Assembly: GCA_038245845.1 (NCBI GenBank)
Contig: JBBRRZ010000004.1
Coordinates: 39,142-103,141, forward strand
Direction: 5' to 3'
Source of the DNA: Candidatus Limnocylindrales bacterium
GTDB taxonomy: Bacteria; Chloroflexota; Limnocylindria; Limnocylindrales; CSP1-4
Length of the DNA: 64,000 nt
Positions 1-25,766 of the stretch are shown piece after piece. A program made the position numbers and the translations under genes. The notes below the pieces were generated by a model. It was not told where the DNA came from. It saw nothing but the letters and a program-made list of their open reading frames with translations, and made no database searches. The first letter of the stretch is position 1; each line of letters opens with the position of its first letter.

Positions 1-1213
1 GGAGATGGCCCGCTTCATCAAGCCGATCCTCGGGATCGTGCCCCCGGACCCCACGGACAACGACCCGCGGCCGCTGATGCCGCTCGCGGGCCTCGCCCGC
101 CGGTTCCAGCAGCTTCCCGAGCGCCAGCAGGCGGTGTTCGTCCAGCTGATGACGATGTCGGCGGCGGACTTCCTCGACCAATGGTTCGAGACGATCCCGC
201 TCAAGGCAACGATGTCCGCGTCCGGGATCATCGGCACCTACCAGGGCATCCGCAGCCCGGGGACGGCGTACGTCCTGCTCCACCACTACATGGGCGAGAT
301 CGACGGTGCGTTCCGCGCGTGGGGCATCCCGAAGGGCGGCACGGGCGGCGTGTCGTACTCGATCGCGCGCGCCGCGCAGGCACTCGGCGCCGAGATCCGG
401 ACCGAGGCGCCGGTGGCCCGGATCGTCGTCAAGGGCGGTAGGGCGTCCGGCGTCGTCCTCGAGAACGGGGAGGAGATCGAGGCGACGCACGTGCTCTCGT
501 CCGCGGACGCGAAGGTGACCTTCCTCGACCTCCTGGAGCCCGGCTCCCTCGACGCCGAGTTCGAGCAGGAGGTCCGCCGCTTCAAGTTCCGCGGCAGCTC
601 GGGCAAGGTCAACCTCGCGGTTGACCGGCTGCCGGACTTCACCTGCCTGCCGGGTGTGGGCGAGCACCTCCGGGGCGCGATCTCCTTCTCCCCGACGATG
701 GTCGAGATGGAGCAGGCGTACGACGAGGCGAAGTACGGCCACTGGAGCTCGCGGCCCTACATGGACATGATCATCCCGACCCTGGTCGACCCCCAGATGG
801 CGCCCCCAGGCAAGCACGTGATCTCGTGCTTCGTCCAGTACGCGCCGTACAAGCTGGCGCCAGGGCTTGGCACCTGGGACGACAACCGTGAGGCGTTCGG
901 GGACGCGGTCATCGACCGGATCGCGGAGTTCGCGCCGAACATCAGGGACATCATCATCGGCCGCCAGGTGCTCACGCCACTCGACATCGAGCGGACGATG
1001 GGCCTCACCGAGGGCAACATCTTCCAGGGTGAGCTCAGCCTCGAGCAGCTGTTCTTCAACCGCCCGGTCCCGGGCTACGCGAGGTTCAGGACGCCCGTCG
1101 CGAACCTGTGGCTGTCGGGCTCGTCCACCCACCCGGGTGGCGGCCTCATGGGTGCCAACGGGCGGCTCGCGGCGCTCGAGGTCCTCAAGTCCGTCGGGCG
1201 GAAGGTGGCCTGA
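1..1213 (+). CDS. Phytoene desaturase/PYROXD2-like FAD-dependent oxidoreductase (5'-truncated by window edge)
   Basis: AWGIPKGGTGGVS, DPQMAPPGKHVISCFVQY, LTEGNIFQGEL and C-terminal LSGSSTHPGGGLMGANG motifs; N-terminal GxGxxG lies upstream of the window. Confidence 0.85.
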   Translation, partial: EMARFIKPILGIVPPDPTDNDPRPLMPLAGLARRFQQLPERQQAVFVQLMTMSAADFLDQWFETIPLKATMSASGIIGTYQGIRSPGTAYVLLHHYMGEIDGAFRAWGIPKGGTGGVSYSIARAAQALGAEIRTEAPVARIVVKGGRASGVVLENGEEIEATHVLSSADAKVTFLDLLEPGSLDAEFEQEVRRFKFRGSSGKVNLAVDRLPDFTCLPGVGEHLRGAISFSPTMVEMEQAYDEAKYGHWSSRPYMDMIIPTLVDPQMAPPGKHVISCFVQYAPYKLAPGLGTWDDNREAFGDAVIDRIAEFAPNIRDIIIGRQVLTPLDIERTMGLTEGNIFQGELSLEQLFFNRPVPGYARFRTPVANLWLSGSSTHPGGGLMGANGRLAALEVLKSVGRKVA

Positions 1214-1215
1214 CG

Positions 1216-2826
1216 ATGACGACGATGAACACCTACGACGCGATCGTCATCGGTGCCGGTCACAACGGCCTGACGGCTGCCGCGTACATGGCCCGCGCGG
1301 GCCTGCGGATCCTCGTGCTCGAGGCGCGTGACCGCGTCGGCGGTGCGACCGTGACCGAGGAGCTGGCGCCGGGCGTCCGCGTCCCGTCGCTCGCGCATAC
1401 GGTCGGCCGGCTGCGGCCGTCCATCGCCCGGGAGCTGGAGCTCGCCCGGCACGGCCTCTCGCTCGTCGCCCCGGAGGTGCGTGTCTTCGCGCCCCAGGAG
1501 GACGGCCGCGCGGTGACGATGTGGAGGGACCTCGGCCGGACCGTGGACGCGTTGCGCGCCTGGTCGGACGACGACGCCACCTCGTACGTGGAGTTCGACC
1601 GGAGCGTCCGGACGCTGTCGCGGTTCCTCGCGGACCTCGGCGACGAGGCGCCGCCCGAGATCAAGGCGCCGGGCTTCGGGGACGCCCTGCTGGGGCTCCG
1701 GCTCGGGCGGGCGTTCCGCGGCCTGGGCAAGCTCGACGGGCGGACCATCCTGCGGGTCCTCGCGATGGCCGCCGCGGACTACGTCGCCGAGTCGTTCACG
1801 ACAGAGGCGATCCGCGGGACCCTCGCCTGGCGCGGCGTCCGCTATACCGCGATGGGTCCGTGGTCCGCGGGCACGACCCAGGTGCTGCTGTCCGATTCCG
1901 CGGGCAACGACGGCGGGGCTGCGGGTGAGACAGTGTTCGCGAAGGGCGGTCCCTCCGCGCTGGCCGATGCGCTCGCCGCCTCGGCGCTCGCCGCAGGCGC
2001 CGAGATCCGGACCGGCGCCCGGGTCGCGCACGTGTCCACCGTTGACGGGGCCGTGACCGGCGTCGTCCTCCAGTCGGGGGAGGAGATCACGTCCACCCGG
2101 GTGGTCTCGGGGCTCGATCCGAAGCAGCTGCTCACGACGCTCGTCGATCCGGTGACCGTGGGGCCGTCGATGCGCTGGCGCGCCGGGAACATCCGGACGC
2201 ACGGCTCCGTGGCGAAGATCAACCTCGTCCTCGACGGGTTGCCCGACTTCCCGTCGGCGGGCGGCGACCCGCGCGTCCTCCGTGGCCGGATCCAGGTCAA
2301 CACGACGTCCATCGACGCCATGGAGCACGCGTTCGACGCATCGAAGTACGGGCGCATCTCGGACGCACCGGTCCTCGAGGTGACGATCCCGTCGCTCGTG
2401 GACCCGTCGCTCGTCGCCGGGGCACCCGAGGGCACCCAGGTCGTGAGCGTGCTCATGCAGTGGATGCCGAAGGCGCCGGCAGACGGCGATTGGGCGTCGC
2501 AGCGGGACGCGATCGGCGACCTGGCCGTGCGGACGCTGGAGACGGTCGCGCCCGGGCTGGGCTCGCGGGTCACGGCGAGACAGGTGCTGACGCCGGCTGA
2601 TCTCGAGTCCGAGTACGGCCTCACCGGCGGCCATCCGCTCCACGCCGAGCCCGGCCTCGACTCATTCTTCCTGTGGCGGCCGCTCCTCGGCTGGGCGCGC
2701 TACCGGATGCCCGTCGCCGGGCTGTACCTCGCAGGCTCCGGCGCGCACCCGGGCGGCGGCGTCACGGGCGCACCGGGGCGCAACGCGGCCGCCGAGGTGA
2801 TCGCGGACCGGCGCAAGCGCCGCTAG
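1216..2826 (+). CDS. Phytoene desaturase/PYROXD2-like FAD-dependent oxidoreductase, paralogue of upstream gene
   Basis: YDAIVIGAGHNGL dinucleotide-binding motif, LEARDRVGG, C-terminal LAGSGAHPGGGVTGAPG; ATG 2 nt after upstream stop. Confidence 0.85.
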   Translation: MTTMNTYDAIVIGAGHNGLTAAAYMARAGLRILVLEARDRVGGATVTEELAPGVRVPSLAHTVGRLRPSIARELELARHGLSLVAPEVRVFAPQEDGRAVTMWRDLGRTVDALRAWSDDDATSYVEFDRSVRTLSRFLADLGDEAPPEIKAPGFGDALLGLRLGRAFRGLGKLDGRTILRVLAMAAADYVAESFTTEAIRGTLAWRGVRYTAMGPWSAGTTQVLLSDSAGNDGGAAGETVFAKGGPSALADALAASALAAGAEIRTGARVAHVSTVDGAVTGVVLQSGEEITSTRVVSGLDPKQLLTTLVDPVTVGPSMRWRAGNIRTHGSVAKINLVLDGLPDFPSAGGDPRVLRGRIQVNTTSIDAMEHAFDASKYGRISDAPVLEVTIPSLVDPSLVAGAPEGTQVVSVLMQWMPKAPADGDWASQRDAIGDLAVRTLETVAPGLGSRVTARQVLTPADLESEYGLTGGHPLHAEPGLDSFFLWRPLLGWARYRMPVAGLYLAGSGAHPGGGVTGAPGRNAAAEVIADRRKRR

Positions 2827-2875: not shown

Positions 2876-3412
2876 TCAGCCCTTCGGACCGCCGCCGAGC
2901 AGGTCGCCGATATCGCCGATGCCACCCGTGGCCGGGGTCGTGCCGCCCTGGCCGCCGCCCTGGCCGCCGCCCATCCCGCCGAGGCCGCCCATCAGCCCGC
3001 CGAGGATCGAGCCGATGTCGATGCCGCCGGAGGCGCCGCCGGCCGGGACCTTCCCGTTGGGCGTCAGCGCGTTGATGATCATCGGCAGGAAGGACGCGAG
3101 CATCGGGAGGAGCGCCTCGATCGAGAGCCCCGTCTGGCCCGACAGCTGCTGGACGGTGTCCGGCCCGAGCGCCTGGCCCAGCTGGTGGGGATCGACGGGC
3201 TGGTTCGGCCCGGTCCCGACCCACGAATCGACGGTCTCGCCCAGGCCCGCGTTGCGCAGCTGGCCGATCAGGCCCTCGAGCCCGCCCTCGCCACCCATGA
3301 GCCCGCCGAGCGCGCCCGCGAGGTCGCCCGTGCCGCCGGCGGCCGTACCGCTGCCGCTCGCCGTCGTGCCGCCACCGCCGAGCGAGCCGAGCAGCTTGCC
3401 GAGGTCGTCCAT
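2876..3412 (-). CDS. YidB/DUF937-like protein, Gly-rich
   Basis: GGLEGLIGQLRNAGLGETVDSWVGTGPNQPV...LTPNGKVP signature; AAGGAG RBS before ATG at 3412. Confidence 0.85.
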   Translation of the reverse strand: MDDLGKLLGSLGGGGTTASGSGTAAGGTGDLAGALGGLMGGEGGLEGLIGQLRNAGLGETVDSWVGTGPNQPVDPHQLGQALGPDTVQQLSGQTGLSIEALLPMLASFLPMIINALTPNGKVPAGGASGGIDIGSILGGLMGGLGGMGGGQGGGQGGTTPATGGIGDIGDLLGGGPKG

Positions 3413-3694
3413 GGGGAGCTCCTTCGATGCGCCGCCACGCCGTGCGGTCTCGGCCCATCTTCGCCGATCACGCCTCTGTGCGGGCACGCGTGTGGCGCCA
3501 CAGTCCGTGAATTCGGCATTCCGCCCCCGTCCGTGCAGGAATTGCGGACTGGCACGCCACGAAGGCAGCACACCGGCGCGAAACGACGAAGTCGCGGACT
3601 CAGGGTCCACGGGAACGGCTCGCCAGGGGCCGAAGTGTCGATGTGGTGGACTGAGAGTCAACACGCCCCGATGGGCATCGACGCCCGCCCGGGC

Positions 3695-7374: not shown

Positions 7375-10300
7375 ATGGCAGCCCGTGCCGTGCATCGCGT
7401 CCGGTTCCTGTCGCTCTGCGCGATCGCGGTGCTGTGCATTCAAGCCACCTACGTCGCGCCTGTTGCCGCGGCTTCGCCGTTCGTCACCAACCAGAGCACG
7501 GCCATTGGAACTGGGAGGAGAGCGGACGGCGGCGCCGTCAAGGTCACGCCAGCGCCGATTCGCATGGAGCCGACAGCGGTGGCCGGCGAGTCCGACGAGC
7601 CGCTTGTGACCCAGAGTTCTCCGAGCGTCGCCCGTCCGCCCAAGGCCCGGACTGAGCTCCAGTCCAAGCGCACGGAGAAGTCTCTGACCTACGCCAATCC
7701 GGATGGGTCCTACACGCTCGTCGTGAGTACCGGCCGGCTGAACTTCAAGGACGCGTCCGGCACGTGGCAGCCGATCAACCTGGCACTGGTCGACGACGCC
7801 GTCGGGGCATTCAGCTTGCGCGGCTCGGCAAACGATGTGACGACTCGCTTCGGGACAGTGAACGCGGAGGCTGGCCTGGCCCAGATTGCCGTTGGCGCCG
7901 ACGTCCTCACAATTCGCGCGATCGGGTATGGCCAGGGGAGCGCGATCCCAGCGGGGCAGTCGGTGCTCGGGTCCTCCCCGACCGACATCGCGCCCGACGT
8001 GGCCACGCCGGCCCCGTCGGCGAGCCCGGATACGGGCACGGCGCAAGGCACCATCGCTGCCACGCCAAGCCCTGCCCCATCCCCCGAGGCAACGGCCGCT
8101 GCATCCCCATCGCTCCCGAGCCTTGAGCCTGCCCCCACGCCGAAGGACACGCCATCAGCGGTCGTCACGCCCAGCCCAACCTCGTCGCCACTCCCCGTGC
8201 CAGCAAATACCCCTTTGCCGTCGCCGGCGCTGGCGCCAGGTTCCAAGGTTGCGGCACCCGGCCAAGGCCACAACGCCACCGTGTGGGCGCAGCCCCTGGA
8301 TTCCGGGCTCGAGTTCGGGGCGACATTCCCCGATTCGAAGTCCGCGACCGCGATCGATTTTGCCCTTGATGTCCCTCCGGGCGACGTGGCGCGTTTGGAC
8401 GGATCCGCCGTGGTCGTCGAGCAGTACACGCTCGATGGATCGGGCTCGCCGACGGTTGTGTTTGTGGGCCGCGTATCGACACCGGTGCTGTACGAGGGCG
8501 GCGGGGTCGACGGGGCCGTGCCGATCGTGGATCGCACCGTCACCAGCCTGACCGATCAGGGCAACGGGAAGTACGTCATTCGCTACGAACTCGACGCCGA
8601 CTGGTTCCACGACCCTGAACGCGTCTTCCCGATCGTGCTCGATCCGACGATTTGCCTGCGGGCAGGTGGCGGTACAGGTTGCACCACCGGCGACACGCAC
8701 TACGCCAACACGTACATCGGTCAGGGACAGCCGACGACCTACCCGACCACGCCGTCCACGCTTCGTGCAGGGCTCGACGCGATCGGATCCCCTGACGCCG
8801 CATGGGGCACGCTGCGCTCGCTCGTCTCCTTCGATCTCAAGGACTTCGTGAACCTCACCGACGCGCAGCAGGTCAGTGCGGCCACGTTGACGCTTCGCGA
8901 GGACAACAATCGGCACGGTACGACCAACGCCGGCGTTTACGCCTACCTGCTCTCGAAGGGATTTACCAACACCACGACCTGGAACGACATCAATGCCAAG
9001 ACCGTTGCGGGATATGGGGGCGTCAAGGTCAATGCGTGTGCCGCCACCACGACGGATTGTGACCTCGCGATTGATGTCACCGACATCCTGGCCGCCAACC
9101 TGTCGAAGAACCCTGCCTCCTGGAAGGGCGGCTGGGGCTTCATGATCCAGGCATACAGCGAGTCGACGTGGGATGAGATCGACTTCTACACTGGCCAGGA
9201 CGCGACCGTTTCGAATCGCCCTCGACTGTCGATTACGTATGTGACGCCCGCCGTCGCGCTCGACTTCGATTCGTCACTCGGGCCGACGTACAGCCCCTCG
9301 ACGATGGCGCCATCCGTGCCCACCGTGCTCCCGATCGTTGTCTCGAACAAGGCCGCGACGACGATCGACAAGTGCACAAGCACAAGCGATCTGGACTGCT
9401 ATCAGCTCGGGTATCGATGGTTCAACGGCAAAGGCCGCCTGGTCTCGAGCACCTCCTTTGGCGCGATGAACCTCATCGCCGACATCGCCGCCGGAGCCAT
9501 AACTCCGACACCGCTCGCACTTGCCATTACGCCCCCCGCGTCGATCGGGCAGTACACGCTCCGGCTCGACCTCGTGCATCGGATCGGGGGCTCCGCAGGG
9601 ACGCTGGTGTGGGCGTCCGACTTTGCTGACCCCTCCAAGTACTACGCGCGGAACAAGAAGGTCCTCGCGTCGGACGGGACGCGGTGGACGGGCATCAGCC
9701 TCATCGAGCGCGACGAGTTCACCATCACAGTCGGCTCCGGCGACATTGCTGCCGATCCGCACAGCGCCGCAGGCATGAGCATCGATCTCGCGACCCGCAA
9801 CCTCGCCTACACCGCGTCCACGGGTCTCGGATTCGGCGATCTCGTCCCGATCGGTCTCGACTATGCCTACAGCAGCGCTGACGCCACCAACTGCACGGGC
9901 TATCTGGGGATCCTTGGCGCGTGCGGATGGTCAACCTCCTGGGATGAACGGGTCACCGGGGGGCCAAACCAAACGGGCTACGACTACATCTACCAGACCA
10001 CGGCGGGGGCACGGTATGTCGCCGACACCGACGCCGACGGCCAGCTCGTGTCAGGGGCGCCCGTCCTCCTCGAGCGGCCACGCGTGACGATCGCCGACGA
10101 GACAAAGCCGGCGGGCAGCGGGATCACGCAGATCGACCCAACAAGTCCGTTCGAGGCGTTCTCGGGTTCGCTGATCAGCCGGGCACCGTCGAATGCAAGC
10201 ACGGGACTGGGCGCACCGAGTACGACCAGCCCCGTTGGCCTGAACACGTATTCGCAGGTGCGGTTCGCGATGCGGACGGACTCGGCAACGAGCACCGGGC

Positions 10301-13300
10301 TATGCATCAAGATTCACAACGTCAGCGATGCCTCGCTCGCCGACCCGCGATTCACCGACAGCTGGTTCTGCTACACCGCGGGATCGCCGTGGAATCCCGG
10401 CTCGTTCGAGAACATCGACCTCGGCGGCAGCATCGTTGGCGCATGGACGTTCTATAGCCGGAACCTGTGGAACGACGTTCGCAACAACGGCACGTTCGGC
10501 GGCCCCCTCGACGAGTATCAGGTGATCGCCATGCAGATTCAGAGTGCTGGGGCGGTATCTGGCTCAACCTACATCGACGCACTGCGGCTCGAGCCCGTTG
10601 ATTCCTCGATCGTCTATTGGAATGGGACCACGATCAACAAGAGTCCGACGACCCTATGGACAGCGGGCGGCGGGCTCACAGCCGAGTCCGATGACGCGCC
10701 CTACACCGGCGAGAAGAGCCTCAAGGTCACCGCGGCATCGTATGGTTCCTCGCCACTGTGCAATACCACTGGGAGCGCCTGCTGGGGGACGTCCGCGGGA
10801 GGCCTGTGGTCGTATGCCTTCAGCTCATGGTCCTGGAAGAAGGTCGGCGGCCAGCTGGCGGCCATCACGATGTGGTTCAACGACGAGACGGCCGGCGTGA
10901 CCGGTGGTGCGATCACCTACTACGCAGGACCCGTTGCACCGGCCGGGGTACCCGTCTGCCCCGGGACCTCGACCCCCTGCGTGGTGCAGGTCAGCCCGAC
11001 GGTTCCGACCACGTGGACCAAGGTCACTCGCAATATCCTCGAGGACGCGCGGCAGATCCTTGGCATGTACACCGACGCGCCCAGCGAGACGCGGGCGGCG
11101 GGTCCCAACGACGTCCGCCTCGTGGGATACCGGATCACCGGAGGCGATGGCAATTTCCTACTCCTCGGGGGCTTCCGCTTCGGTGGGCTGCCCGACGTGG
11201 CACGACAGACGCGCACGGGGACGGCTGACGAGTACGCCCAGCCGGATGTCGCAGGGGAGGCGGTCCAGACATATGACTTCCGCGCGACGTACGCCGACGG
11301 GACTGTCCACTACTTCAACGATGCCGGCCTGCTCGCACGCATCGTTGATCTCGACGGGAACACGCTTTCGGTCGATTGGACGATCGACCCGACCAAGAGC
11401 GGTCAGGCGGCATACACCCTCGACCGGATCCGTGCGGCATCCGATGGGCTGAGCCTCTCCACGGGCACCGCCAACCGAGAGTTGGTGATGGCCAAGAGCG
11501 TTGCGGGTGGCGCGACCGTCTACCGCTTCGACGAGAACCTCGGTTCGACGACCTCGGACGCGTCGGGGCGAGCCGCGACCTTCAGAGTGTCGACGACGAC
11601 GTCGGATCTCGTCTCGGTCGCGCCCGCTCGGCTTACCGACCAGACCTGCACCGCGGCGCCAAGCGGCTGCTTCAGCTACATATATGACGCAGCGTCTCCA
11701 GCCCATCGGCTTGTTGAAGTCCGCGACCCGCGGTACGACCCAGGTGCAACCCCGGCTGTGCTGTACGCAACGGGGATCACCTGGGCGCAGCTCGCCGGCG
11801 ATTCGGTCGTGCGCCCGACGCAGATCACGGACAAGGCTGCGGGCAATGCCGTCCTGCTCAATGTGGTCGCCTGGGATCACAACCAGGACGGTTCGCCGCT
11901 CTACCGGCGGCCGCTCTATCAGGATGCGACGGCCATGGCAGCGGGCAATGTCGCGATCCATGAGGAACTGTCACCCGACGGCGCCGTCCGCGCGACCTAC
12001 GCGCCGCAGGCGTGCTCTGGCACCTGTTCGACGCTCACGGCCCCCGGGGGCCTCACGTCTGACGCCGCCCATCCCGACCAGGGCCTCGATCACCTTCGGG
12101 TGTCCGCCGTGGAATTCGACGGCATCGCGCACGTCAGCAAGACCACCACCTATCGGTGCAACCAGGCCCCCGCCGCAGGGTCGGGGTGCACAGGAGCAGC
12201 GGACCTGCTGTCCGTGACCCGCCAGGGTTCCAACGCGGGCGCGACGGTCGACAGCGTCGCGAACCCTCTCGCGGGCGGCGGGCCTGCCTGGACGCAGACC
12301 GCCGACCAGTACTTCGCGAGCATGCGCGATTCTGGCGGCACGAATCCTGACCTGTACCGCACCGAGATGACGTACGACGGGTATGGGGAGCCGATCGAGA
12401 CTCGTACCCTCGCCACGAATCAGGGCGCGAACAGTGGCGTCGCAGCGGTGTCAGGGGCAACGGCGCCCATGGCGCTCTATTCGCTGAACGGCAATCCGAA
12501 CGACGCGGTCGGCGGTGTCACGGGCTCACCGTCCGGGATCACGTATGCCGCGGGAGCGCTCCGGTTCAGCGCTGACCAGGCCGCCGTCTTCAATGGCTCG
12601 GCCACGTTGACCGCGGCGATTCCATCCCAGACGGCTGGCTACGGCCTCGAGGCCTGGGTCAAGGTGACGGCGGCCGGGGTGACCGGCAAAGGCATCCTTG
12701 GCCGCTTTCTCTCGAATTCCGGCGCCATGGTCCTCATCGACTCCAACGGCTACTTCGCACTCGCCCACAACGCGGCCCGCGTCGTGACAGCGGTGAAGCC
12801 CGAGCCCAATCGCTGGTATTACGTGGCTGCCACCTGGGATGGGGCCACCGGCAAGGTGTACGTCGACGGCCGGCTCGCCGCGTCTGGCGCGGTAACGGGC
12901 GCCACGGGTACCGGTGGCGCCACCTTCGAGTTCGGCGCGTATGGCAACGCCGCGACCGGAACGAAGCTGTCGGGCTCCATCGATGAGGCGGCGATCTACA
13001 GCTCTGCGCCAACCGCCTCGGATATCCGGAACCGGTTCAATGCGGCTCGAGCCGTCGCGGAGATCGCGACGAGGACGGCGATCGACCGTGCCGGCCATCG
13101 CGTCGGTAGCATCGATTCCTCCCTCGTGAACGGTGACTTTGAGGGTGGGCTCACCGGCTGGAAGGCCGCAACGGGAAGCCCGTCGGTGTACGCGGCAGCG
13201 TCGTCGAGCGATGCCAACGTTCACGTCGAGAGCGGCGCACCGGCGCCGTCCTGGGTCTCGATCGCCCTGCCGACTGGCGCGGCGATTCGCCAGGATGCCC

Positions 13301-16300
13301 AGCTCGTCCCCGGCCAGACGGTCCGGTTCCAGGCGTGGCACAAGTCGGCGGGCAGCGCGAGCTGGACCGTGTCCTGGTTCAACGGGACCACGTGGTCTTC
13401 GACCTGGAACGGCACGTCGGTGACCGGGACGTCCACTGCGGCGGGCTGGACCGGCGAAGCCTGGGACCTGACGCTGCCCATGCGGTCCGATGGCCGGATC
13501 CGCATCGACCTCGCCGGAGCCGGCGCAGGGACGACCTATGTCGATGACGTCGTGCTCGTCACGGCATGGGCGCGAACCGGGTACAACCAGCTTGGCCTCG
13601 CGACGACCAGCGCAACGCTGCCAATTGGATCTATCGGCGGGGTGGGGTCGCTTCCGGTTGTCACGACCTCGACGGCGTACACCCCATCGTCGGTCGCGCC
13701 CGCAATCTATCCGACCACGGTCATCGCCAACGATGTCGCGACGCCGGGTGGGGATCCGGCCAACGATGCCACGACGTCCATGACGTATGACGCGTGGGGC
13801 CGACGGCTGGTCACCATCGACCCGGATGGCATCGTCTCCGCCACGCCCACGTACGGCGCCAACCAGACCGACGTGACGAGCGTCACTGATGCCCTCAATC
13901 ACACGACGTCGTACACGTACGACCTGGCTGGCCGCGTCCTGACCGAGTCGACTCCGCTCGGCCTCGTGACCCGGAGCACGTACGACCAGGCGGGTCGACG
14001 GGTGATGCTGGCGGCGCCCGACGGCACAAAGTCGGCAACCATCTTCAATGCCTACGGCGAGCAGACCGCGGTCATAGCGAACAACGGGGACGGAACCGGT
14101 TCAGGCGCGTCCGGCGTGGACGACGTGGCGAGCCGGTTTGCCTACGACGCGATGGGCCGCCAGACGAAGATCGAACTCGATTGCGGCGATGTGGCAGGCA
14201 GCTGCACCGCGAACGGGGGCATCGACGCCACGACCTCGACGGCACTGGACCTCACTGGGGCAGCGGTCGCGACGACGACCTACCCGGGGTCCGGTGGCAC
14301 GGGAACCCCACGTTCCACCACCGAGTACTTCGAGACCTTCACCTACACGCCCAGCGGGTCGCCGGCAACGACCCTCACGCGCCTCACTCCGAGCGGCGTC
14401 AGGAATGCGATTGCGCCCGCGGCGAGCCCCGCGCCCCAATGCCCCGGTACCGGCAGCACCTTCTGTTCGAGTGCCAGCCTCACCAAGGCGCTCAACGGGA
14501 TCTCGGTCCCGGGGATCGACTTCAATGGCCAGACGCTGGTCACGGTCGATGCCTATGGGAACATCTCGCGGACGTGGCACGACGTGCAGGGCCGGACGGT
14601 CCGCACGATCGCAACCTACGACGACGGCGACCCCGCCACTGGTGCAGCCGATCGCGACCTCGTGAGCGACACCCAATACTCCCTGGCAGGGCTCGTGGTC
14701 CAGGCGACCGATGCGTCGAACCGATCCCTCGTGTCGAGCTACGACGCGCTCGGGCGCGTCACGAAGGTGACGCGTGTGGATCGCGCGGGTGTTGACACCC
14801 TCGCGAGTCGGACCATCTACACGTCGGCTGGCCGGGTTGATCGCGAATCCGGCGATGACGCGCCGACCAAGCTTGACGGTGCGCGGACCTGGTCAAAGTC
14901 GGTCTATGACGCCCTCGGCCGCCTCGCGTACACGTTGCTCCACTATGACGCGACGGGCAGTCCCGGCTATGCAATCGATCCATTCGAGGACGGGGACACC
15001 GTCGGCTGGGCGCCCGCGGGGACGGGCGCGAGTGTCGCATCCGATGCCACCGTCGCCAGATCCGGCACCCGAGCGCTCAAGGTGACGCCGGGCAGTTCGG
15101 GGACCGGCACGACTTGGACGTTGTCGGGGACCTTCCTTGCCGGCACGTCGTACTCCGCGTCGGCACAGGTCTTCGTACCGTCCGGCTCCACGATCACGGG
15201 CACGTTCGGCGGCGGCACGCCGGTCACGGTGGCCGCCGCCGGATGGCAGCCGCTCGTGGCGACCCTCGTCGTGGGGGGCACCAACGTGACGAATCCCGTG
15301 TTCACCATCACGTCCAGTCTGGCCTCCACGCCGTTCTGGGTGGATGACGCGCAGGCGTGGATGACAGCTGACCCAACCGTGAACCTGCCGACCGGGCTCG
15401 TCGCCCGAGACGCCGACGGCCGGGTGACGGCATCGATCATGGTCCCGGGCGTTCCCGGCGATCCTGCGATGGTCACTACGACCGGCTACAACGCCGTCGG
15501 GCAGCCGGTCATCGTCTCGGTGAACAGTGCACATCTCTATGGCGGCACAATCCTCGCTGAGTCGAGCCTCACCCACTACTGGCCGCTTGACGAGGCATCG
15601 GGCTCGGTGCTCGACGCCAAGGGCACGTTGCCTCTGGCCTCCGTGTCAGCGGCCGTCCGTGGTCGAGCCGGGCTGGTCGATGAGGGCCGGACGGCCACCG
15701 GTTTCGCCGGGTCTGCGTCCTACGTGCTCAACGACACCGCCGCTGCGTCAACCGCGACCGACAACTTCAGCCTCGAGGCGTGGATCCAGGCCGACGCGCT
15801 GCCGGCGGCCGGGCAGCTGGCGATCGCTGCCTACAACGGCAATGATCTGGGCGGATGGGGCATCGGCATCGACGCCACGGGCGCCATCGTCGCGCTCTAC
15901 GGCGGGCGCGCCACCCTCGCGACCACCGCGGTGATCACCACGGGCACTCTGCATCACCTCGTCCTCGTCCGATCGGGTGGCGTGGCGAAGATCTATGTGG
16001 ACGGCACGGCGTACACGCCATCCAACTCGACGACCGCACCGATCGCTCCGACCGCGCATGTCACGATCGGCGGGGAGATCGCGGACACTCGGGACTTCGC
16101 GGGAACCGTCGACGAGGTCGCGGTCTACAGCGCTGCACTCAGCGCCACCCAGGTGAGCAGCCACTTCGCGATCGGTCACCGGACGGATGCCAGCTCGAAC
16201 CTGACCTCCCGGACGAGCTACGATCCACTCGGACGCGCAACCGACGCATCGGACGCACGGACGATCCGCACCCATGCGGTCTTCGACCGCCTTGGCCGGC

Positions 16301-18978
16301 AGATCGACACCTACGCAAACTACCGCTCGGGAACGCCGATTGACGGGACGAGCGATGACAGCGACGTGCGCAGTCGCTATGCCTATGACGCGCTCGGAGA
16401 GCTCGTTGCCTATTGCCCGGCCAGGGCCGTGGCCAGCGCTGATGCCTGCGACCCGACGAGCACCAACACCACTAGCAATCAGTACAAGAGCGCGTGGCAC
16501 TACGGCTTCGACGCGATGGGCCGGCCGACCACCACTGTCCCCCCGGTCCCGGCGGGGTCTGCGACCCCACTCGCCACATCGGAAACCGTCTACGAGGCTG
16601 GCGGTCGCGTCGCCAAGACCTGCGCCTACCCCGCGGCGTTGTCATGCGCGGGCACGACGGCGACCCGAACCCAGACACCGACATACGACGCGCTCGGCCG
16701 CGTGCTCACCATGACGACGACCGACAACGGCACGACGGTGCCCGCACTGACCAGGACCTCGACCTACAACACCGACGGATCCCCAGCGTCGCTGAGTCGG
16801 GGTGGCGACACCGTCACCTTTGGCTACGACGACGCGGGTCGTCAGGTCTCGACGTCTCGGGGCGGCAATGTGCTGACCGGGGTCGAGTACGACGTTGATG
16901 GCACGATCCTGCGGAGGGTCGACCACTACCTCGACGGCGCCACGACGGCCACGACGGGTTTTACCTACGACTGGGCGCGTCGCGAGATCACGGCGTCAAA
17001 CAGTGCCTTCGCGAGCAATGCGGCAACCGCAGCGTATCGACTTGACGGCCTGCTCGCGGCCCGAACGTACCCGACGAGCCCGACCGAGGCGCTTTCGCTC
17101 GCGTACGACGCGGCAAAGCGGCCGCTGACGATCACCCGCGCCAACGGCGACACGATCACCCGGACCTATGACCGGGCGGGCAACACCGCCTCCGAAGCCC
17201 GCGTCCTGGCGGGGATCTCCGGCAATGCGGGCAGCGGGACGCAGACCTTCACCTACGACTCGCTCAACCGGCTCACCGGCTCCAGCGGCCTCTCTACCAG
17301 CAAGTCGTACCAATACGACCTCGATGGCAATCGGACGGTCAAGGTCGAGGGTGCCACGACGACGAGCTACACGTACGACCGCACCGATCAACTGCTGGGC
17401 CAGAGCACCGGCAGCCTGTCCTTTGTCTACGACGCATTCGGCAACATGACCTCGAAGGCCGAGACGCTGCTGACCGTCACCAGCTTCGCCTATGACGCGG
17501 CCAACCGGCTGACGACGATCACGCCCGCCGCAGGCGCCGGCACGACGGCCACGTTCACCTTCGACGCCCTCGACCGGATCCGCACTCGAACATTGGGCAC
17601 GGGCCCGGCCGAGAGCTACGGCTACCTGGGCGCGACGGACACCGCGATCGAGGTCTCGAGCGTCACCGGTGGCGTGACCACTGCGACCCGCAGCCTGCTC
17701 GATCTCGATGGCTCACGGCTGGCGCTCAAGACCGGCAGCACGGTGTCGTGGACGCTGTTCGACGAGCTGGGCTCGCTCATCGGCCTCGAGAGCGCCTCGC
17801 GAGCCGTGACCGATGCCCGCCGCTATGACTGCTACGGCGAGACGATCGCCTCGGTGGCGCCGACGACCGACCCGTGGCGCTTCCGGGGCAGCCTCGACGT
17901 CAGCCCGACCACGGATCCCCTGTATGCGATGGGCGCGCGCCTCTATGCCCCCTCGGTGGGCACCTTCACCCAGCTCGACACGTTCGCAGGCTCGGCACAG
18001 CACCCGGCCTCGATGAACCGCTTCCTGTACGCCGAAGGCAACCCCGCCACGTTCATCGACCCCACCGGGCACATGGTCTCGCAGAACCAGCTCTGTGGCC
18101 GGTACGCGGACTTCTGCGGCGACAACAGCACCCCGGCGACCAGGCAGCACCCGGACACGAGCAAGCCTGCCAACGGCGGTGGCTGCGGGACGAGCTGCGG
18201 GGGGAGCACGTCCGGGGGCAGTGTCGATCCGTCGTGGACGAGCGCCAAGCCTAAGGGCGCGGGGGCTCCCGCCTACATCGATCCGGATGTCTTTGCATCG
18301 AGCATGGAGTGGAACCAACTTCTCGATCAGACATCCTATCGGTGCTCTGCCGGCGCCATGCCCGATGAGTCGGCATGTGACCTGCTGGACGCACTTCACG
18401 ACTTCCAACATGACCAGGAGACGGCGTTCTGCGCGACACACAACGAGCTGTGTCGCGCCCGACGCGACGAGACCGTGTTGCTTGCCGCCGGCGGCGTCGA
18501 GGCAATCGGCACGGTGATCGCATTCGTAGATCTCGTCCCAGGTGATGAGGTCGCGATGCTCACGGCCGATGGCGCCACGGCCAGTCGACTCGGTGAGGTG
18601 CAAGCAGAGATCGCGGCTGCTTCGAGTACGATGACGAGGTCCTCTGCCATTCAGTCAGACCTCGCTATCGCGGAGTCGCACCTATTGAACGAAACCGACG
18701 ACGGGCTGATCTATGGTCCCAATGCTGCTATGCTTTCCTCGATCCGAACGGCAATTCAGGATGGGCGTCCTCTAAGTCAATTTGAACGAACCTTCCTCGA
18801 CCACGAGCTGCTAGAGTCTTCATTGATGTCGGAGAGCGGCATGACACTGGAAGACGCACACCGCCTCGTCCTGCAGGTATATAAGCCGGGAACGAACTAC
18901 TCCCCGACGATCATGGAGGCATTCCCTGACCATTTCAACAACTTGGAGAGGGCAAATGTCAACCTCCCAACCCGATAG
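7375..18978 (+). CDS. Giant secreted Rhs/YD-repeat polymorphic toxin (3867 aa): signal peptide, WapA-like N-terminus, DNRLRE-like, Ig-like, LamG x2, carbohydrate-binding-like domains, Rhs core, C-terminal toxin
   Basis: Signal peptide ending VAAA; RTEKSLTYANPDGSY; many YDxxGR repeats; core LYAMGARLYAPSVGTFTQLD...NRFLYAEGNPATFIDPTGH (PxxxxDPxG at 18043-18069); about 300-aa C-terminal extension. Confidence 0.93.
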   Translation: MAARAVHRVRFLSLCAIAVLCIQATYVAPVAAASPFVTNQSTAIGTGRRADGGAVKVTPAPIRMEPTAVAGESDEPLVTQSSPSVARPPKARTELQSKRTEKSLTYANPDGSYTLVVSTGRLNFKDASGTWQPINLALVDDAVGAFSLRGSANDVTTRFGTVNAEAGLAQIAVGADVLTIRAIGYGQGSAIPAGQSVLGSSPTDIAPDVATPAPSASPDTGTAQGTIAATPSPAPSPEATAAASPSLPSLEPAPTPKDTPSAVVTPSPTSSPLPVPANTPLPSPALAPGSKVAAPGQGHNATVWAQPLDSGLEFGATFPDSKSATAIDFALDVPPGDVARLDGSAVVVEQYTLDGSGSPTVVFVGRVSTPVLYEGGGVDGAVPIVDRTVTSLTDQGNGKYVIRYELDADWFHDPERVFPIVLDPTICLRAGGGTGCTTGDTHYANTYIGQGQPTTYPTTPSTLRAGLDAIGSPDAAWGTLRSLVSFDLKDFVNLTDAQQVSAATLTLREDNNRHGTTNAGVYAYLLSKGFTNTTTWNDINAKTVAGYGGVKVNACAATTTDCDLAIDVTDILAANLSKNPASWKGGWGFMIQAYSESTWDEIDFYTGQDATVSNRPRLSITYVTPAVALDFDSSLGPTYSPSTMAPSVPTVLPIVVSNKAATTIDKCTSTSDLDCYQLGYRWFNGKGRLVSSTSFGAMNLIADIAAGAITPTPLALAITPPASIGQYTLRLDLVHRIGGSAGTLVWASDFADPSKYYARNKKVLASDGTRWTGISLIERDEFTITVGSGDIAADPHSAAGMSIDLATRNLAYTASTGLGFGDLVPIGLDYAYSSADATNCTGYLGILGACGWSTSWDERVTGGPNQTGYDYIYQTTAGARYVADTDADGQLVSGAPVLLERPRVTIADETKPAGSGITQIDPTSPFEAFSGSLISRAPSNASTGLGAPSTTSPVGLNTYSQVRFAMRTDSATSTGLCIKIHNVSDASLADPRFTDSWFCYTAGSPWNPGSFENIDLGGSIVGAWTFYSRNLWNDVRNNGTFGGPLDEYQVIAMQIQSAGAVSGSTYIDALRLEPVDSSIVYWNGTTINKSPTTLWTAGGGLTAESDDAPYTGEKSLKVTAASYGSSPLCNTTGSACWGTSAGGLWSYAFSSWSWKKVGGQLAAITMWFNDETAGVTGGAITYYAGPVAPAGVPVCPGTSTPCVVQVSPTVPTTWTKVTRNILEDARQILGMYTDAPSETRAAGPNDVRLVGYRITGGDGNFLLLGGFRFGGLPDVARQTRTGTADEYAQPDVAGEAVQTYDFRATYADGTVHYFNDAGLLARIVDLDGNTLSVDWTIDPTKSGQAAYTLDRIRAASDGLSLSTGTANRELVMAKSVAGGATVYRFDENLGSTTSDASGRAATFRVSTTTSDLVSVAPARLTDQTCTAAPSGCFSYIYDAASPAHRLVEVRDPRYDPGATPAVLYATGITWAQLAGDSVVRPTQITDKAAGNAVLLNVVAWDHNQDGSPLYRRPLYQDATAMAAGNVAIHEELSPDGAVRATYAPQACSGTCSTLTAPGGLTSDAAHPDQGLDHLRVSAVEFDGIAHVSKTTTYRCNQAPAAGSGCTGAADLLSVTRQGSNAGATVDSVANPLAGGGPAWTQTADQYFASMRDSGGTNPDLYRTEMTYDGYGEPIETRTLATNQGANSGVAAVSGATAPMALYSLNGNPNDAVGGVTGSPSGITYAAGALRFSADQAAVFNGSATLTAAIPSQTAGYGLEAWVKVTAAGVTGKGILGRFLSNSGAMVLIDSNGYFALAHNAARVVTAVKPEPNRWYYVAATWDGATGKVYVDGRLAASGAVTGATGTGGATFEFGAYGNAATGTKLSGSIDEAAIYSSAPTASDIRNRFNAARAVAEIATRTAIDRAGHRVGSIDSSLVNGDFEGGLTGWKAATGSPSVYAAASSSDANVHVESGAPAPSWVSIALPTGAAIRQDAQLVPGQTVRFQAWHKSAGSASWTVSWFNGTTWSSTWNGTSVTGTSTAAGWTGEAWDLTLPMRSDGRIRIDLAGAGAGTTYVDDVVLVTAWARTGYNQLGLATTSATLPIGSIGGVGSLPVVTTSTAYTPSSVAPAIYPTTVIANDVATPGGDPANDATTSMTYDAWGRRLVTIDPDGIVSATPTYGANQTDVTSVTDALNHTTSYTYDLAGRVLTESTPLGLVTRSTYDQAGRRVMLAAPDGTKSATIFNAYGEQTAVIANNGDGTGSGASGVDDVASRFAYDAMGRQTKIELDCGDVAGSCTANGGIDATTSTALDLTGAAVATTTYPGSGGTGTPRSTTEYFETFTYTPSGSPATTLTRLTPSGVRNAIAPAASPAPQCPGTGSTFCSSASLTKALNGISVPGIDFNGQTLVTVDAYGNISRTWHDVQGRTVRTIATYDDGDPATGAADRDLVSDTQYSLAGLVVQATDASNRSLVSSYDALGRVTKVTRVDRAGVDTLASRTIYTSAGRVDRESGDDAPTKLDGARTWSKSVYDALGRLAYTLLHYDATGSPGYAIDPFEDGDTVGWAPAGTGASVASDATVARSGTRALKVTPGSSGTGTTWTLSGTFLAGTSYSASAQVFVPSGSTITGTFGGGTPVTVAAAGWQPLVATLVVGGTNVTNPVFTITSSLASTPFWVDDAQAWMTADPTVNLPTGLVARDADGRVTASIMVPGVPGDPAMVTTTGYNAVGQPVIVSVNSAHLYGGTILAESSLTHYWPLDEASGSVLDAKGTLPLASVSAAVRGRAGLVDEGRTATGFAGSASYVLNDTAAASTATDNFSLEAWIQADALPAAGQLAIAAYNGNDLGGWGIGIDATGAIVALYGGRATLATTAVITTGTLHHLVLVRSGGVAKIYVDGTAYTPSNSTTAPIAPTAHVTIGGEIADTRDFAGTVDEVAVYSAALSATQVSSHFAIGHRTDASSNLTSRTSYDPLGRATDASDARTIRTHAVFDRLGRQIDTYANYRSGTPIDGTSDDSDVRSRYAYDALGELVAYCPARAVASADACDPTSTNTTSNQYKSAWHYGFDAMGRPTTTVPPVPAGSATPLATSETVYEAGGRVAKTCAYPAALSCAGTTATRTQTPTYDALGRVLTMTTTDNGTTVPALTRTSTYNTDGSPASLSRGGDTVTFGYDDAGRQVSTSRGGNVLTGVEYDVDGTILRRVDHYLDGATTATTGFTYDWARREITASNSAFASNAATAAYRLDGLLAARTYPTSPTEALSLAYDAAKRPLTITRANGDTITRTYDRAGNTASEARVLAGISGNAGSGTQTFTYDSLNRLTGSSGLSTSKSYQYDLDGNRTVKVEGATTTSYTYDRTDQLLGQSTGSLSFVYDAFGNMTSKAETLLTVTSFAYDAANRLTTITPAAGAGTTATFTFDALDRIRTRTLGTGPAESYGYLGATDTAIEVSSVTGGVTTATRSLLDLDGSRLALKTGSTVSWTLFDELGSLIGLESASRAVTDARRYDCYGETIASVAPTTDPWRFRGSLDVSPTTDPLYAMGARLYAPSVGTFTQLDTFAGSAQHPASMNRFLYAEGNPATFIDPTGHMVSQNQLCGRYADFCGDNSTPATRQHPDTSKPANGGGCGTSCGGSTSGGSVDPSWTSAKPKGAGAPAYIDPDVFASSMEWNQLLDQTSYRCSAGAMPDESACDLLDALHDFQHDQETAFCATHNELCRARRDETVLLAAGGVEAIGTVIAFVDLVPGDEVAMLTADGATASRLGEVQAEIAAASSTMTRSSAIQSDLAIAESHLLNETDDGLIYGPNAAMLSSIRTAIQDGRPLSQFERTFLDHELLESSLMSESGMTLEDAHRLVLQVYKPGTNYSPTIMEAFPDHFNNLERANVNLPTR

Positions 18979-19555
18979 AGTCACGCAACTGCTAGTCAAC
19001 GGGTGGCGAGTTGGCATCGGCCGCGACGATGGTGGGTTCATCCTGGAGGCGTCGTCGCGCGACCGGAGCGTCCACGCGGCAAATCCCGTGCTCGAAGCTA
19101 TTGGCGCGGCTGGCTTTGAGGTAGAAGTCCTGCATCTCATGTCGGGACGGCAGGCGCACGCATTGGTGGCGATCGAATATGAGCCGGCAGCAGATGCGGA
19201 ACTGAAGATCGATCTTCCATTGGACATGGTGCACCCTCCGGGCGGGCCGGTTACGTTGGACGGTCTCCGTCATCGTGGGCCGCTCAATCGACCTTTGCTT
19301 CCGTTGCTACCATCTTCAATGGCCGATGCTTTTGTTGCCGCCGTGGCCGATCAGCGGCGCCGCATGCCTCCGGCAGGTGTCTTGGTGCTGGCTGGAGCTG
19401 GAATAGACGAGGGCTCCTCAGCGTGGGCGTTCAAGGCAGTGGGCCAAGTCGTCCGTGTTGTTGTGGACTGCATCGCCTCCATGGCAGACGATGGCGCCCG
19501 AGACGCCGCAGTGCGCGACCTAGTGAATCAGTGGCCAACAACACTCTCCGGTTGA
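18956..19555 (+). CDS. Putative cognate immunity protein of the Rhs toxin
   Basis: Overlaps toxin 3' end, GGAG upstream of ATG, reduced GC like the toxin tip; no family recognised. Confidence 0.6.
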   Translation: MSTSQPDRVTQLLVNGWRVGIGRDDGGFILEASSRDRSVHAANPVLEAIGAAGFEVEVLHLMSGRQAHALVAIEYEPAADAELKIDLPLDMVHPPGGPVTLDGLRHRGPLNRPLLPLLPSSMADAFVAAVADQRRRMPPAGVLVLAGAGIDEGSSAWAFKAVGQVVRVVVDCIASMADDGARDAAVRDLVNQWPTTLSG

Positions 19556-19595: not shown

Positions 19596-19895
19596 ATGAG
19601 GCCGCCGACCGTCTCTGACTCCGTTCGTACGCAATCGCACAGGTCCTCTTGTCGCGGATGTCCTGGTGCATCGCGAGCTACAACGAGGCGAGGCGAGGCG
19701 CGCGTAGCTTCGGCGCGCGTAGCTTCGGCGCGCGTAGCTTCGGCGAGCGCAATCTTCGTCGTTCTGGGACTGTTCGGTGTGGGTCGTGCGGACAAGCCCG
19801 TTTCACTGTTCACGCCGACCATGCACAACAACACGAGAACCGTCGCCGATGGTTGGATCCACGTCGGAACTTACACGGTGCCGCGATGGGACTGA
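19596..19895 (+). pseudogene. Possible orphan toxin C-terminal remnant
   Basis: Tail NTRTVADGWIHVGTYTVPRWD ends overlapping the next ATG by 10 nt; 5' part is low-complexity repeat. Confidence 0.3.
19700..19744. repeat. 15-bp tandem repeat GCGCGTAGCTTCGGC x3, preceded by (CGAGG)x3
   Basis: Exact copies at 19700, 19715 and 19730. Confidence 0.95.
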
Positions 19896-20242
19896 TCGAT
19901 GAACTTCGGAGCATGACCCCAGCCGAAATGGCATTGCTTGAGAAGTTGCTGAGTGTCGACTTTCCTGGGCGGGACGAACTGCACGCTCAGATCCAGTCGG
20001 CCGTCGTGTCGAAGATCGATGAGGACGGGAGCCTCGCGATTGCCGTCTCGCCGGACATTGCTGCTCCGGTAGACAGGCGTATTCCCGTGGAAGGTGAGGT
20101 TGAGGACGTCGATGGAGTCATGATTCACGTTCTGCTGCACGTCCTCGATGGTCGCGCGACGGAATTGGAGATCTTTCGCGAAGATCCGAAGCGCGTGATC
20201 ATGCCCATCGACGCTGACATTCTTCGCGTCGTGCTCTTCTAG
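19886..20242 (+). CDS. DUF6984-like small protein, probable orphan immunity protein
   Basis: RSMTPAEMALLEKLL...DGSL...VEGEVEDVDGVMIHVLLHVLDGRATELEIFRED pattern recalled for DUF6984; located in toxin locus. Confidence 0.65.
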   Translation: MGLIDELRSMTPAEMALLEKLLSVDFPGRDELHAQIQSAVVSKIDEDGSLAIAVSPDIAAPVDRRIPVEGEVEDVDGVMIHVLLHVLDGRATELEIFREDPKRVIMPIDADILRVVLF

Positions 20243-24501: not shown

Positions 24502-24510
24502 GATGCTCAC

Positions 24511-25760: not shown

Positions 25761-25766
25761 CCGCCG

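Follow-up and report, generated by a model that had tools for sequence, protein, structure and literature searches.

Gene layout

The subject of this analysis is a giant Rhs gene carried on a 64,000-nucleotide stretch of contig JBBRRZ010000004.1 of a Candidatus Limnocylindrales bacterium (Chloroflexota), referred to below as the window. The gene occupies positions 7375..18978 of the forward strand as a single uninterrupted open reading frame (ORF) of 3867 amino acids (aa) plus a stop codon, free of internal stops, with GGAG located 11 nt 5' of its ATG; collinear homologues of its product are 3559-4058 aa long. A preliminary description had given the span as 7375..18072 and proposed an Rhs protein with lectin-like domains interleaved through its YD-repeat region. 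That this is one gene was borne out, but the Rhs core ends with the codon at 18072, and the gene extends for a further 906 nt, a 301-aa C-terminal region having been missed. The domain coordinates given there proved correct throughout to within a few codons. All features of the gene described below lie on the forward strand.

The homologue alignments indicate that this protein contains four Pfam-type lectin modules, two of the laminin G type (LamG) and two carbohydrate-binding modules (CBM), which are true insertions between consecutive YD repeats.

The lectin-type modules

The protein was scanned against Pfam and NCBIfam, both whole and as 25 overlapping 300-aa segments. This domain scan, proposed as a check in the preliminary description, revealed two Laminin_G_3 and two CBM_4_9-type modules, which are backed by two AlphaFold2 models. 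LamG1 (12454..13053, aa 1694-1893; predicted at 12470-13050) lies between two consecutive YD repeats and matched Laminin_G_3 at aa 1743-1884 with 75.3 bits against a cut-off of 27.6. LamG2 (15577..16182, aa 2735-2936; predicted at 15570-16180), also between two consecutive YD repeats, scored 86.6 bits against the same cut-off, at aa 2782-2928. Superposition of the LamG1 model on domain 4 of AbnA (5ho2/5hon) with VIA-align gave Z 22.4-22.9 and a root mean square deviation (rmsd) of 2.0-2.4 over 185 residues at 25% identity, and the LamG2 model fitted 5ho2 with Z 22.8 and rmsd 2.3 over 191 residues. This arabinan-binding domain was the best match of both modules (20-25% identity, rmsd 2.0-2.5); their next fold neighbours are lectin-like domains of sialidases, pentraxins and the binding regions of clostridial neurotoxins.

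CBM1 (13105..13572, aa 1911-2066; predicted at 13120-13570) matches CBM_4_9 at aa 1916-1995. The CBM_4_9 score was 20.6 bits for this module alone, below the cut-off of 25.9, and 37.1 bits for the whole protein. Its model matches the CBM16 structure 2zew (Z 16.4, rmsd 2.4, 137 residues); in the VIA-align comparison CBM16, a porphyran-binding CBM, CBM61 and CBM4-2 were found at Z 13.9-16.4. CBM2 (14965..15384, aa 2531-2670; predicted at 14970-15365) has YD repeats on either side and contains a CBM_4_9 domain at aa 2537-2610 (28.4 bits, cut-off 25.9). Aligned with CBM1 by hhalign, it gave a probability of 82.5% (E 1e-5).

Insertion between consecutive YD repeats

RHS repeats were detected with PF05593 (83 bits, seven stretches) and TIGR01643 (60.2 bits), with matches at aa 2100-2470 and 3000-3390. 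They define two canonical shell segments, A (13573..14964, aa 2067-2530) and B (16183..17823, aa 2937-3483), which hhalign relates to each other with a probability of 98.8%. LamG1 and CBM1 (site 1) are separated by a single YD hairpin (13054..13104, aa 1894-1910; strands E622-631 and E637-643 of model A, described below) with the family consensus TxYDxxGHP. CBM2 and LamG2 (site 2) are separated by two YD hairpins (15385..15576, aa 2671-2734; strands E306-347 of model B) with the family consensus NIPTETAYDADGRV...TAYDxxGR.

In the homologues P0005, P0039, P0040 and P0045, which lack LamG1, '...LYRTxYxYDxxGR...PxxN' abuts 'TxYDxEGHPTQVxD' as consecutive YD repeats, and the approximately 200 residues of LamG1 occupy exactly that YD-YD turn in the window's protein; P0004 likewise has no LamG1, in an alignment that is not clean at this point. 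Similarly, 'TAYDxxGRxxAVSVN' abuts 'NLTTxxxYDALGR' in P0005, P0021, P0025 and P0045, which lack LamG2, the module that fills this turn in the window's protein. Because homologues without them join both flanking repeats directly, the LamG modules can be regarded as insertions in YD turns. CBM1 has the single YD hairpin between itself and LamG1 on one side and a further YD-type repeat on the other, while CBM2 is bounded by 'SVYDALGR...HYDATG' and 'NLPTGLVARDADGRV'. Since YD repeats bound each of LamG1, CBM1, CBM2 and LamG2, these represent four separate insertions, and the interleaving of lectin domains with the YD region that was proposed beforehand is upheld by the alignments. The YD-YD junction evidently tolerates insertions of 140-200 residues, which would be useful for engineering Rhs cocoons as carriers.

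Architectures were counted with hidden Markov models (HMMs) of the family alignment in 168 proteins, of which 62 were family-like; 33 of these spanned the whole stretch between the first shell turn and the core and were counted as complete. CBM1 and CBM2 were present in all 33 complete architectures, whereas both LamG modules occurred in 11, LamG1 only in 10, LamG2 only in six and neither in six. On these counts the CBM pair is constant in the family and the LamG modules are optional cassettes.

The modules show a mean pairwise identity of 31-37%, the scaffold 39-42% and the Rhs core 56%; between P0001 and P0002, CBM2 and LamG2 are 30% identical and the adjacent shell 60%. By this measure the lectin modules seem to diverge somewhat faster than the scaffold. 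In a quick tree of 58 LamG modules, where truncated proteins may carry the wrong site label, most modules clustered with others from their own site: changes of label numbered 5 and 4, compared with 17.8 and 16.8 after shuffling. Four LamG sequences from site 2 nest within a site-1 clade of this tree with 99% support, a placement that hints at cassette exchange, not firmly.

Some relatives possess additional beta domains of the fn3 and RGI_lyase types in the C-terminal half of the shell (P0004 aa 3318-3393, P0005 aa 2738-2908), where the window's protein has none. The family alignment also contains large insertions relative to the window's protein at aa 3303-3366.

Predicted structure of the shell

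Model B is an AlphaFold2 prediction of aa 2370-3569, which include site 2, from a 32-row alignment, with a mean predicted local distance difference test score (pLDDT) of 84.9 and a predicted template modelling score (pTM) of 0.81. Superimposed by VIA-align, it fits solved Rhs shells, including the part formed by segment B, with Z 30-35. As a single rigid fit, model residues 10..1183 align with residues 644..1415 of the Salmonella bongori Rhs protein 8qjb_A (Z 34.8, rmsd 2.7 Å, 697 residues); residues 9..1185 align with 327..1076 of 8qja_C (Z 34.6, rmsd 2.7 Å, 684 residues) and residues 14..1183 with 1136..2152 of TcdB2-TccC3 (6h6g; Z 31.5, rmsd 3.0 Å, 718 residues). At the point where the window's protein carries some 400 inserted residues, the reference shell chains run on uninterrupted. 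Since just 616 residues of model B follow LamG2, strands upstream of CBM2 and/or the inter-module hairpins must share in the fit. Segment-wise structure prediction, which the preliminary description had suggested, thus has the shell continuing across the insertion at site 2 in these superpositions, and the fold of the model is that of a beta-spiral cocoon.

Model A covers aa 1273-2470, including site 1 (1198 residues, AlphaFold2, 29-row alignment, pLDDT 80.0, pTM 0.82). Its first part corresponds to a divergent N-terminal shell turn (11257..12450, aa 1295-1692) which is predicted to form beta-hairpins, with a block pLDDT of mostly 70-90, and which has a canonical YD repeat at its end. YD-like strands had been claimed for 11190-12470: the hairpins of model A agree with this, but the sequence is YD-like at both ends only. 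A Foldseek search with model A returned Rhs shells as the best rows (E 6e-22). When aa 1295-1692 and aa 1894-2490 were predicted as two chains, the score was 0.82, against 0.00 for the best of three controls; a mark of 0.82 is reached by 116 of 157 solved complexes and by two of 215 mismatched pairs, counts which hold only roughly because a custom alignment was used. In the two-chain runs contact agreement was at least 90% and partner pLDDT at least 77. Along both chains the contacts return at intervals of 20-30 residues, a spacing expected of adjacent turns in a spiral, and the repeats on each side of LamG1 meet (aa 1672-1685 with aa 1894-1909). This result may reflect likeness to Rhs shells that have already been solved.

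Continuity of the shell across site 1 is probable in these models rather than shown. The one continuous YD spiral of the preliminary description is consequently sustained by model superposition at site 2 and indirectly, through the pTM of model A and the two-chain score, at site 1. The models would place about 1570 shell residues in one chain (aa 1295-1692, 1894-1910, 2067-2530, 2671-2734 and 2937-3566), which exceeds the roughly 1000 residues of the shells of effectors delivered by type VI secretion.

Domains ahead of the shell

The first 33 residues (7375..7473) read as a signal peptide: arginines at positions 4, 8 and 10 precede hydrophobic residues from aa 11 to aa 30 (Kyte-Doolittle values reaching 2.2), after which comes VAA/AS. 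The signal peptide claimed in the preliminary description is thus matched by an N-terminus shaped like that of a Sec substrate. Two conserved blocks follow (7642..8694, aa 90-200 and 300-440), with a Pro/Ser/Thr-rich linker between them at aa 196-292. The WapA-like label given beforehand to this N-terminal part was not confirmed. The linker had been predicted at 7960-8250 and is indeed present; only five of 14 aligned family members cover it. HMMs of the N-terminal blocks also matched Rhs proteins outside the family; among 106 such proteins the architecture strings bYK (nine), abYK (six), aYK (two), abYLYK, abKYK and abdYK (one each) were recorded.

A DNRLRE domain (8707..9237, aa ~445-621; predicted at 8700-9240) was identified by NCBIfam NF033679 at aa 469-621, with 48.1 bits against a cut-off of 34, and Pfam calls the equivalent region of the relative P0011 CBM96 (PF24517). 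Next to it is a conserved block (9250..9654, aa 626-760) with a mean pairwise identity of 47% across the family; the Ig-like label previously attached to 9300-9620 could not be confirmed, the block having no match in Pfam, NCBIfam or PDB sequences. At 9778..9996 (aa 802-874) the 'entry' segment expected at 9780-9950 does resemble DUF6531 (PF20148), but weakly, at 16.8 bits against a cut-off of 24.1.

Two related domains of about 180 aa each (10117..11199, aa 915-1095 and 1096-1275; predicted at 10140-11190) complete this part of the protein. Hhalign relates one to the other over 139 columns with a probability of 94.8% (E 5.5e-8), and the motif W....RN[LI]..D, by which they were first recognised, is found at aa 1024 and aa 1214. 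The Atlas feature search linked the duplicated pair (aa 915-1275) to CBM-type and galactose-binding-like families at 0.91-0.94, values treated as leads only. Kinship of the pair with CBM1, CBM2 or LamG1 was rejected, at hhalign probabilities of 0.1-8.5%. In the whole-protein and segment scans, aa 1-440, 626-800, 875-1740 and 3567-3867 gave zero Pfam or NCBIfam matches.

Core, C-terminal region and export

The Rhs-associated core (17824..18072, aa 3484-3566; TIGR03696, 53.2 bits against a cut-off of 32.5) ends in IDPTGH. D3535 and the residues D3562, P3563, G3565 and H3566 of the DPxGH motif are invariant in all 14 aligned members. The core aspartates have a known catalytic role in Tc and Rhs proteins.

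Beyond the core lies the C-terminal region (18073..18975, aa 3567-3867), comprising a linker rich in Gly, Ser and Cys and a presumed toxin. It is not conserved, with a mean identity of 19% among family members, and relatives possess instead an HNH domain (P0005) or a weak match to Tox-REase-7 (P0029); in these sequences it resembles the variable C-terminus of polymorphic toxins. Pfam and NCBIfam segment scans (E up to 1) and PADLOC returned nothing for this region, and a search of PDB sequences one chance-level row (E 0.31). Leads from the Atlas feature search to colicins, pyocins and MafB-type proteins, all below 0.9, were not accepted.

The end of the gene is overlapped by 23 nt by an ORF of 199 aa (18956..19555, forward strand), a candidate immunity gene by position only, for which no family match was obtained, PADLOC included. 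A tblastn search of 79 loci with the C-terminal region and six downstream ORFs retrieved the window's own copy, plus two weak rows: the C-terminal region against locus L008 (31% over 84 aa) and orf213 against L007.

A second ORF nearby (19649-20242, forward strand, 197 aa) carries DUF6984 (PF22480, 37.9 bits). It is located in a stretch at 18-22 kb, just downstream of the Rhs core, across which the GC content of the window drops from about 0.72 to 0.62-0.64 and which may hold further immunity or orphan cassettes.

The genome from which the window derives (3.44 Mb, 80 contigs, 87% complete) contains no match to PAAR (PF05488), VgrG (TIGR03361), Hcp (PF05638) or WXG100 (PF06013); LXG and EssC were not searched. 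Taken with the signal-peptide-like N-terminus, this fits the earlier proposal of a Sec-exported protein with no PAAR, VgrG or WXG partner.

Family, distribution and genomic setting

A word-indexed search identified four long collinear relatives (P0002-P0005) with 33-52% identity. An exhaustive search with aa 1273-2470 gave 15705 proteins at E <=0.001, mostly through the YD repeats, with 254 below 1e-30; among the best 150 of the 15705, 20 matched the whole 1198-aa query in one stretch. When one genome per species was scanned, 14 loci matched the query over more than 3000 residues, with identities of 32-56%. The titles of 13 of these are of Chloroflexota type (Chloroflexia, Ca. Limnocylindrales, Anaerolineaceae, Chloroflexi), and the remaining one is an 'Alphaproteobacteria' metagenome-assembled genome (MAG). 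The family-specific part (aa 915-1690) occurred in four of 400 other genomes of the phylum, including three of 23 from the same family and none of three from the same genus. This is an accessory gene of uncultured bacteria, rare and patchy in its distribution and almost confined to Chloroflexota MAGs. The full-length member labelled Alphaproteobacteria (L021, CAVUGF010000010.1) and a partial member in a MAG labelled Actinomycetes (L020, JAJZQV010000096.1) could be the result of transfer or of mis-binning.

The window's own genome has a single copy of the family. Two further Rhs cores occur in it, one within a 1148-aa open frame (L002, G000:C2:199649-202885) and one within a 282-aa frame cut by the start of contig C21 (L003, G000:C21:1-1681), and both are without the family-specific part. 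The genes upstream of the Rhs gene (a TrpS-type synthetase, an AI-2E transporter and SurE) had no counterpart in the loci compared. Elsewhere in the window, a RES-domain protein (23220-23861, reverse strand; PF08808, 54.9 bits) is encoded directly downstream of a 294-aa ORF without family match (23866-24750, reverse strand), and the two are probably a RES toxin and its antitoxin. A 1086-aa frame at 24575-27835 (forward strand) has GHMP-kinase domains confined to its last ~240 residues; it is probably a high-GC artefact, the real gene being much shorter.

Proposed function

We propose, with somewhat more confidence than doubt, that the gene encodes an Rhs/YD polymorphic toxin exported by Sec, which operates without a specialised secretion system and is held on its target by lectin modules inserted in the shell. 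One chain would build a long YD beta-spiral into which LamG1, CBM1, CBM2 and LamG2 are spliced at two regions, and the modules would face outwards from the cocoon. With the DNRLRE domain (CBM96 in a relative) and the duplicated pair they may bind glycans of an envelope or matrix, and this binding would hold the particle on the target cell. The core, with both conserved aspartates, closes the chain and presumably cleaves it after DPxGH; the C-terminal toxin would remain encapsulated until delivery, and the overlapping 199-aa ORF would be its immunity gene.

Several observations weigh against this proposal. A shared lectin fold does not by itself show sugar binding, no homologue of the C-terminal region occurred among 5492 candidate proteins of 435-2000 aa, and tblastn found no counterpart of the 199-aa ORF in 78 loci besides the window's own copy. 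At the N-terminal end of the shell, the DUF6531 match is below cut-off and aa 1295-1692 align with canonical shell parts by hhalign at E 0.004-0.03, which is not significant. Foldseek TM-scores of model A against shells are 0.13-0.22, and in both VIA-align runs on this model no Rhs shell appeared among 50 rows each, all being lectin-domain or CBM matches (Z at least 13.0 and at least 18.6). The models cover 1198 and 1200 of the 3867 residues on shallow alignments of 29 and 32 rows, and the placing of the modules outside one closed cocoon follows from scores, ranges and contact lists.

A bolder form of the proposal, which we put forward tentatively, is that the cocoon itself is the targeting device. 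The protein would be a self-contained, Tc-sized, single-chain particle whose hairpin loops display the four lectin modules for multivalent recognition of glycans on the envelopes of competitors, and gain, loss or exchange of LamG modules at two fixed YD-YD junctions would retarget it. Counting the N-terminal domains, there may be as many as seven putative sugar-binding modules. If this is true, the family would be the Rhs counterpart of the lectin spokes of umbrella toxins and, among bacteria, a prototype for the 'receptor domains on the shell' design of the mosquito protein SGS1.

Among the alternatives, the one that survives best, unlikely as we hold it to be, is self-tethering, in which the modules bind wall, sheath or matrix polysaccharide of the producer and display a loaded cocoon for contact-dependent inhibition, with no part in recognising the target. 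A secreted protein of 400 kDa needs something to keep it near the cell; this one has a signal peptide, and the general family scans revealed no SLH or LPXTG wall-anchor family; the constancy of both CBMs in all complete architectures is also what would be expected of a housekeeping anchor. The optional LamG cassettes and the faster divergence of the modules, however, fit a changing target better than the producer's own wall.

A protein-binding or structural role, with the LamG and CBM folds serving as docking or oligomerisation surfaces or as buttresses of the long shell and binding no sugar, is distinctly improbable. After AbnA domain 4 the best fold neighbours are the lectin-like N-terminal halves of the binding domains of clostridial neurotoxins and of NTNH (Z ~19-20), which make largely protein contacts; LamG domains of pappalysin and pentraxins match by sequence profile, and residues 1976-1979 and 2038-2040 of CBM1 touch the shell turn in the two-chain model. 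Nevertheless, in sequence as well as in fold the modules come closest to domains that bind carbohydrate: AbnA domain 4, 25% identical, was solved with an arabino-oligosaccharide, and CBM16, CBM61, CBM4-2 and the porphyran-binding CBM also match.

Finally, it is hardly credible that the lectins separate independent YD blocks like beads on a string, with a cocoon of canonical size built from the last ~1100 non-insert residues (aa ~2067 on) and LamG1 and CBM1 as N-terminal accessories: residue 10 of model B (aa 2379) does align with residue 644 of the S. bongori Rhs core (entry title residues 360-1420), so that a shell of standard length would begin at about aa 2095, directly behind CBM1, the stretch aa 1295-1692 is not detectably YD by profile and the VIA-align lists hold no shell row for model A, but LamG1 and CBM1 have canonical YD repeats immediately before and after them, the pTM of the 1198-residue model A argues against floppy beads, the interface between aa 1295-1692 and aa 1894-2490 is extensive and periodic (0.82 against 0.00), and TcdB2-TccC3 aligns from its residue 1136, leaving room for a longer, Tc-sized shell.

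For a toxin held on its target by inserted lectins, as we propose, the significance lies in how Rhs and teneurin-like toxins find and enter targets without a type VI (T6SS) or type VII secretion system (T7SS) or TcA, an open question according to the discussion of the 2026 paper on bacterial teneurin-like proteins (PMC13018210). The family places candidate receptor-binding modules on the shell and offers natural variants with and without each LamG on a conserved scaffold, a ready-made experiment on whether shell-displayed lectins set the target range. It also indicates that a design of the SGS1 type exists in free-living bacteria. The significance is bounded by the principle having been published for SGS1, by the commonness of a simpler form in actinomycete genomes and by function here being inferred only.

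Comparison with known systems

The closest known structure in design is the mosquito saliva protein SGS1, solved by cryo-electron microscopy in 2023, whose Rhs/YD shell contains an inserted CBM and an inserted lectin domain (PMC9935623); most bacterial SGS homologues are described there as much shorter than SGS1. Both proteins are giant single-chain Rhs/YD cocoons with an Rhs core, and the order CBM, short shell stretch, lectin-type domain in SGS1 is that of site 2 here; model B superimposes on SGS1 (8fjp_A) with Z 33.5 and rmsd 5.0 over 494 residues. SGS1 is encoded by a eukaryotic gene of presumed bacterial origin and has two beta-propellers, a wedge domain, one lectin insertion region and buried helices as cargo. 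The protein in the window, in contrast, is bacterial, with no propeller detected, lectin pairs at two regions, optional LamG cassettes and a polymorphic C-terminus.

A simpler arrangement occurs in Streptosporangiaceae. P0009 (Streptosporangium violaceochromogenes), of a type which NCBI names 'LamG-like jellyroll fold domain-containing protein', has DUF6531 at 236-307, about four YD repeats at ~341-420, LamG at 496-654 and RHS repeats from ~823. Among the matches listed, this region was 100% covered in 112 of 119 other clusters, mostly named Streptosporangium, Nonomuraea and related genera; domain order was read in P0009 and P0011 only. These proteins have Laminin_G_3 after DUF6531 and the first YD repeats, then the main RHS array and core, and they too are polymorphic toxins, with HINT, GH-E or Endonuclease_NS_2 C-termini. 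They differ in carrying a single LamG, close to where the shell begins on its N-terminal side, and in lacking a CBM_4_9 pair and a second site, at a length of ~2400-2700 aa. No paper describing them was found in the literature searched.

In the TcB-TcC cocoon of Tc toxins the beta-propeller of TcB is the domain inserted, and the core has aspartyl protease activity. The SGS1 paper (PMC9935623) mentions the propeller as a receptor domain for TcA. A long Rhs shell with a foreign inserted domain and a core of the aspartyl autoprotease kind are common to TcdB2-TccC3 (PDB 4o9x, 6h6g) and the present protein; the Tc cocoon differs in its two chains, in an insert that docks on TcA and in requiring TcA for delivery. 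General Pfam scans of the protein turned up no propeller family, and no search for TcA was made.

The T6SS Rhs effectors (RhsA 7q97, RhsP 8h8a, Tse5 8cp6, S. bongori 8qjb) share shell fold and core with it (Z 30-35; sequence E 1e-13 to 4e-32). Their own features are shells of ~1000 residues, no inserts in the aligned stretch and delivery with PAAR/VgrG. In the 87%-complete genome neither a PAAR, VgrG or Hcp partner nor the WXG100 partner of a T7SS-type effector was found, and the window's protein has a signal-peptide-like N-terminus in place of a PAAR domain.

Two groups of secreted toxins are also relevant. The umbrella toxins of Streptomyces are secreted polymorphic toxins of soil bacteria which owe their specificity to diversified lectins that bind cell-surface glycopolymers (PMC11062931, PMC13274773, bioRxiv 10.1101/2025.04.24.650519). 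These are described as particles of several proteins, in which the lectins are subunits of their own and an Rhs shell is lacking; the likeness is functional, and no homology is claimed. Bacterial teneurin-like proteins (TLPs) are presented in PMC13018210 as Sec-dependent YD-shell toxins with delivery and release unexplained; the words 'lectin' and 'carbohydrate' do not occur in that text. TLPs have a TTR, FN-plug and NHL superfold and a TIP domain N-terminal to the shell, and none of these was detected here: NHL and TTR had no Pfam match in the whole-protein and segment scans, the N-terminal 1272 residues being outside both models. Model B superimposes on the TLP 9ifo_A with Z 30.0 over 409 residues, and PF25023 (TEN_YD-shell) was in a precomputed list of matches and absent from our own scan of the protein.

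Novelty of the architecture, implied by the preliminary description, is accordingly limited, and the refuting condition named there, that such an architecture should turn out to be commonplace among known Rhs families, applies in part. Since SGS1 and the actinomycete P0009-type proteins have it, lectin insertion into a YD array is not new in principle, SGS1 having been solved and LamG after the first YD repeats being widespread in Streptosporangiaceae; for bacterial Rhs shells, no description of LamG or CBM insertions was found in the literature searched, one Rhs-shell survey (Structure 2024) being beyond reach. What sets the protein in the window apart is the combination of four modules placed deep within the shell at two regions, LamG modules that are optional and occupy fixed YD-YD junctions, a single chain of Tc size and a setting in the Chloroflexota.

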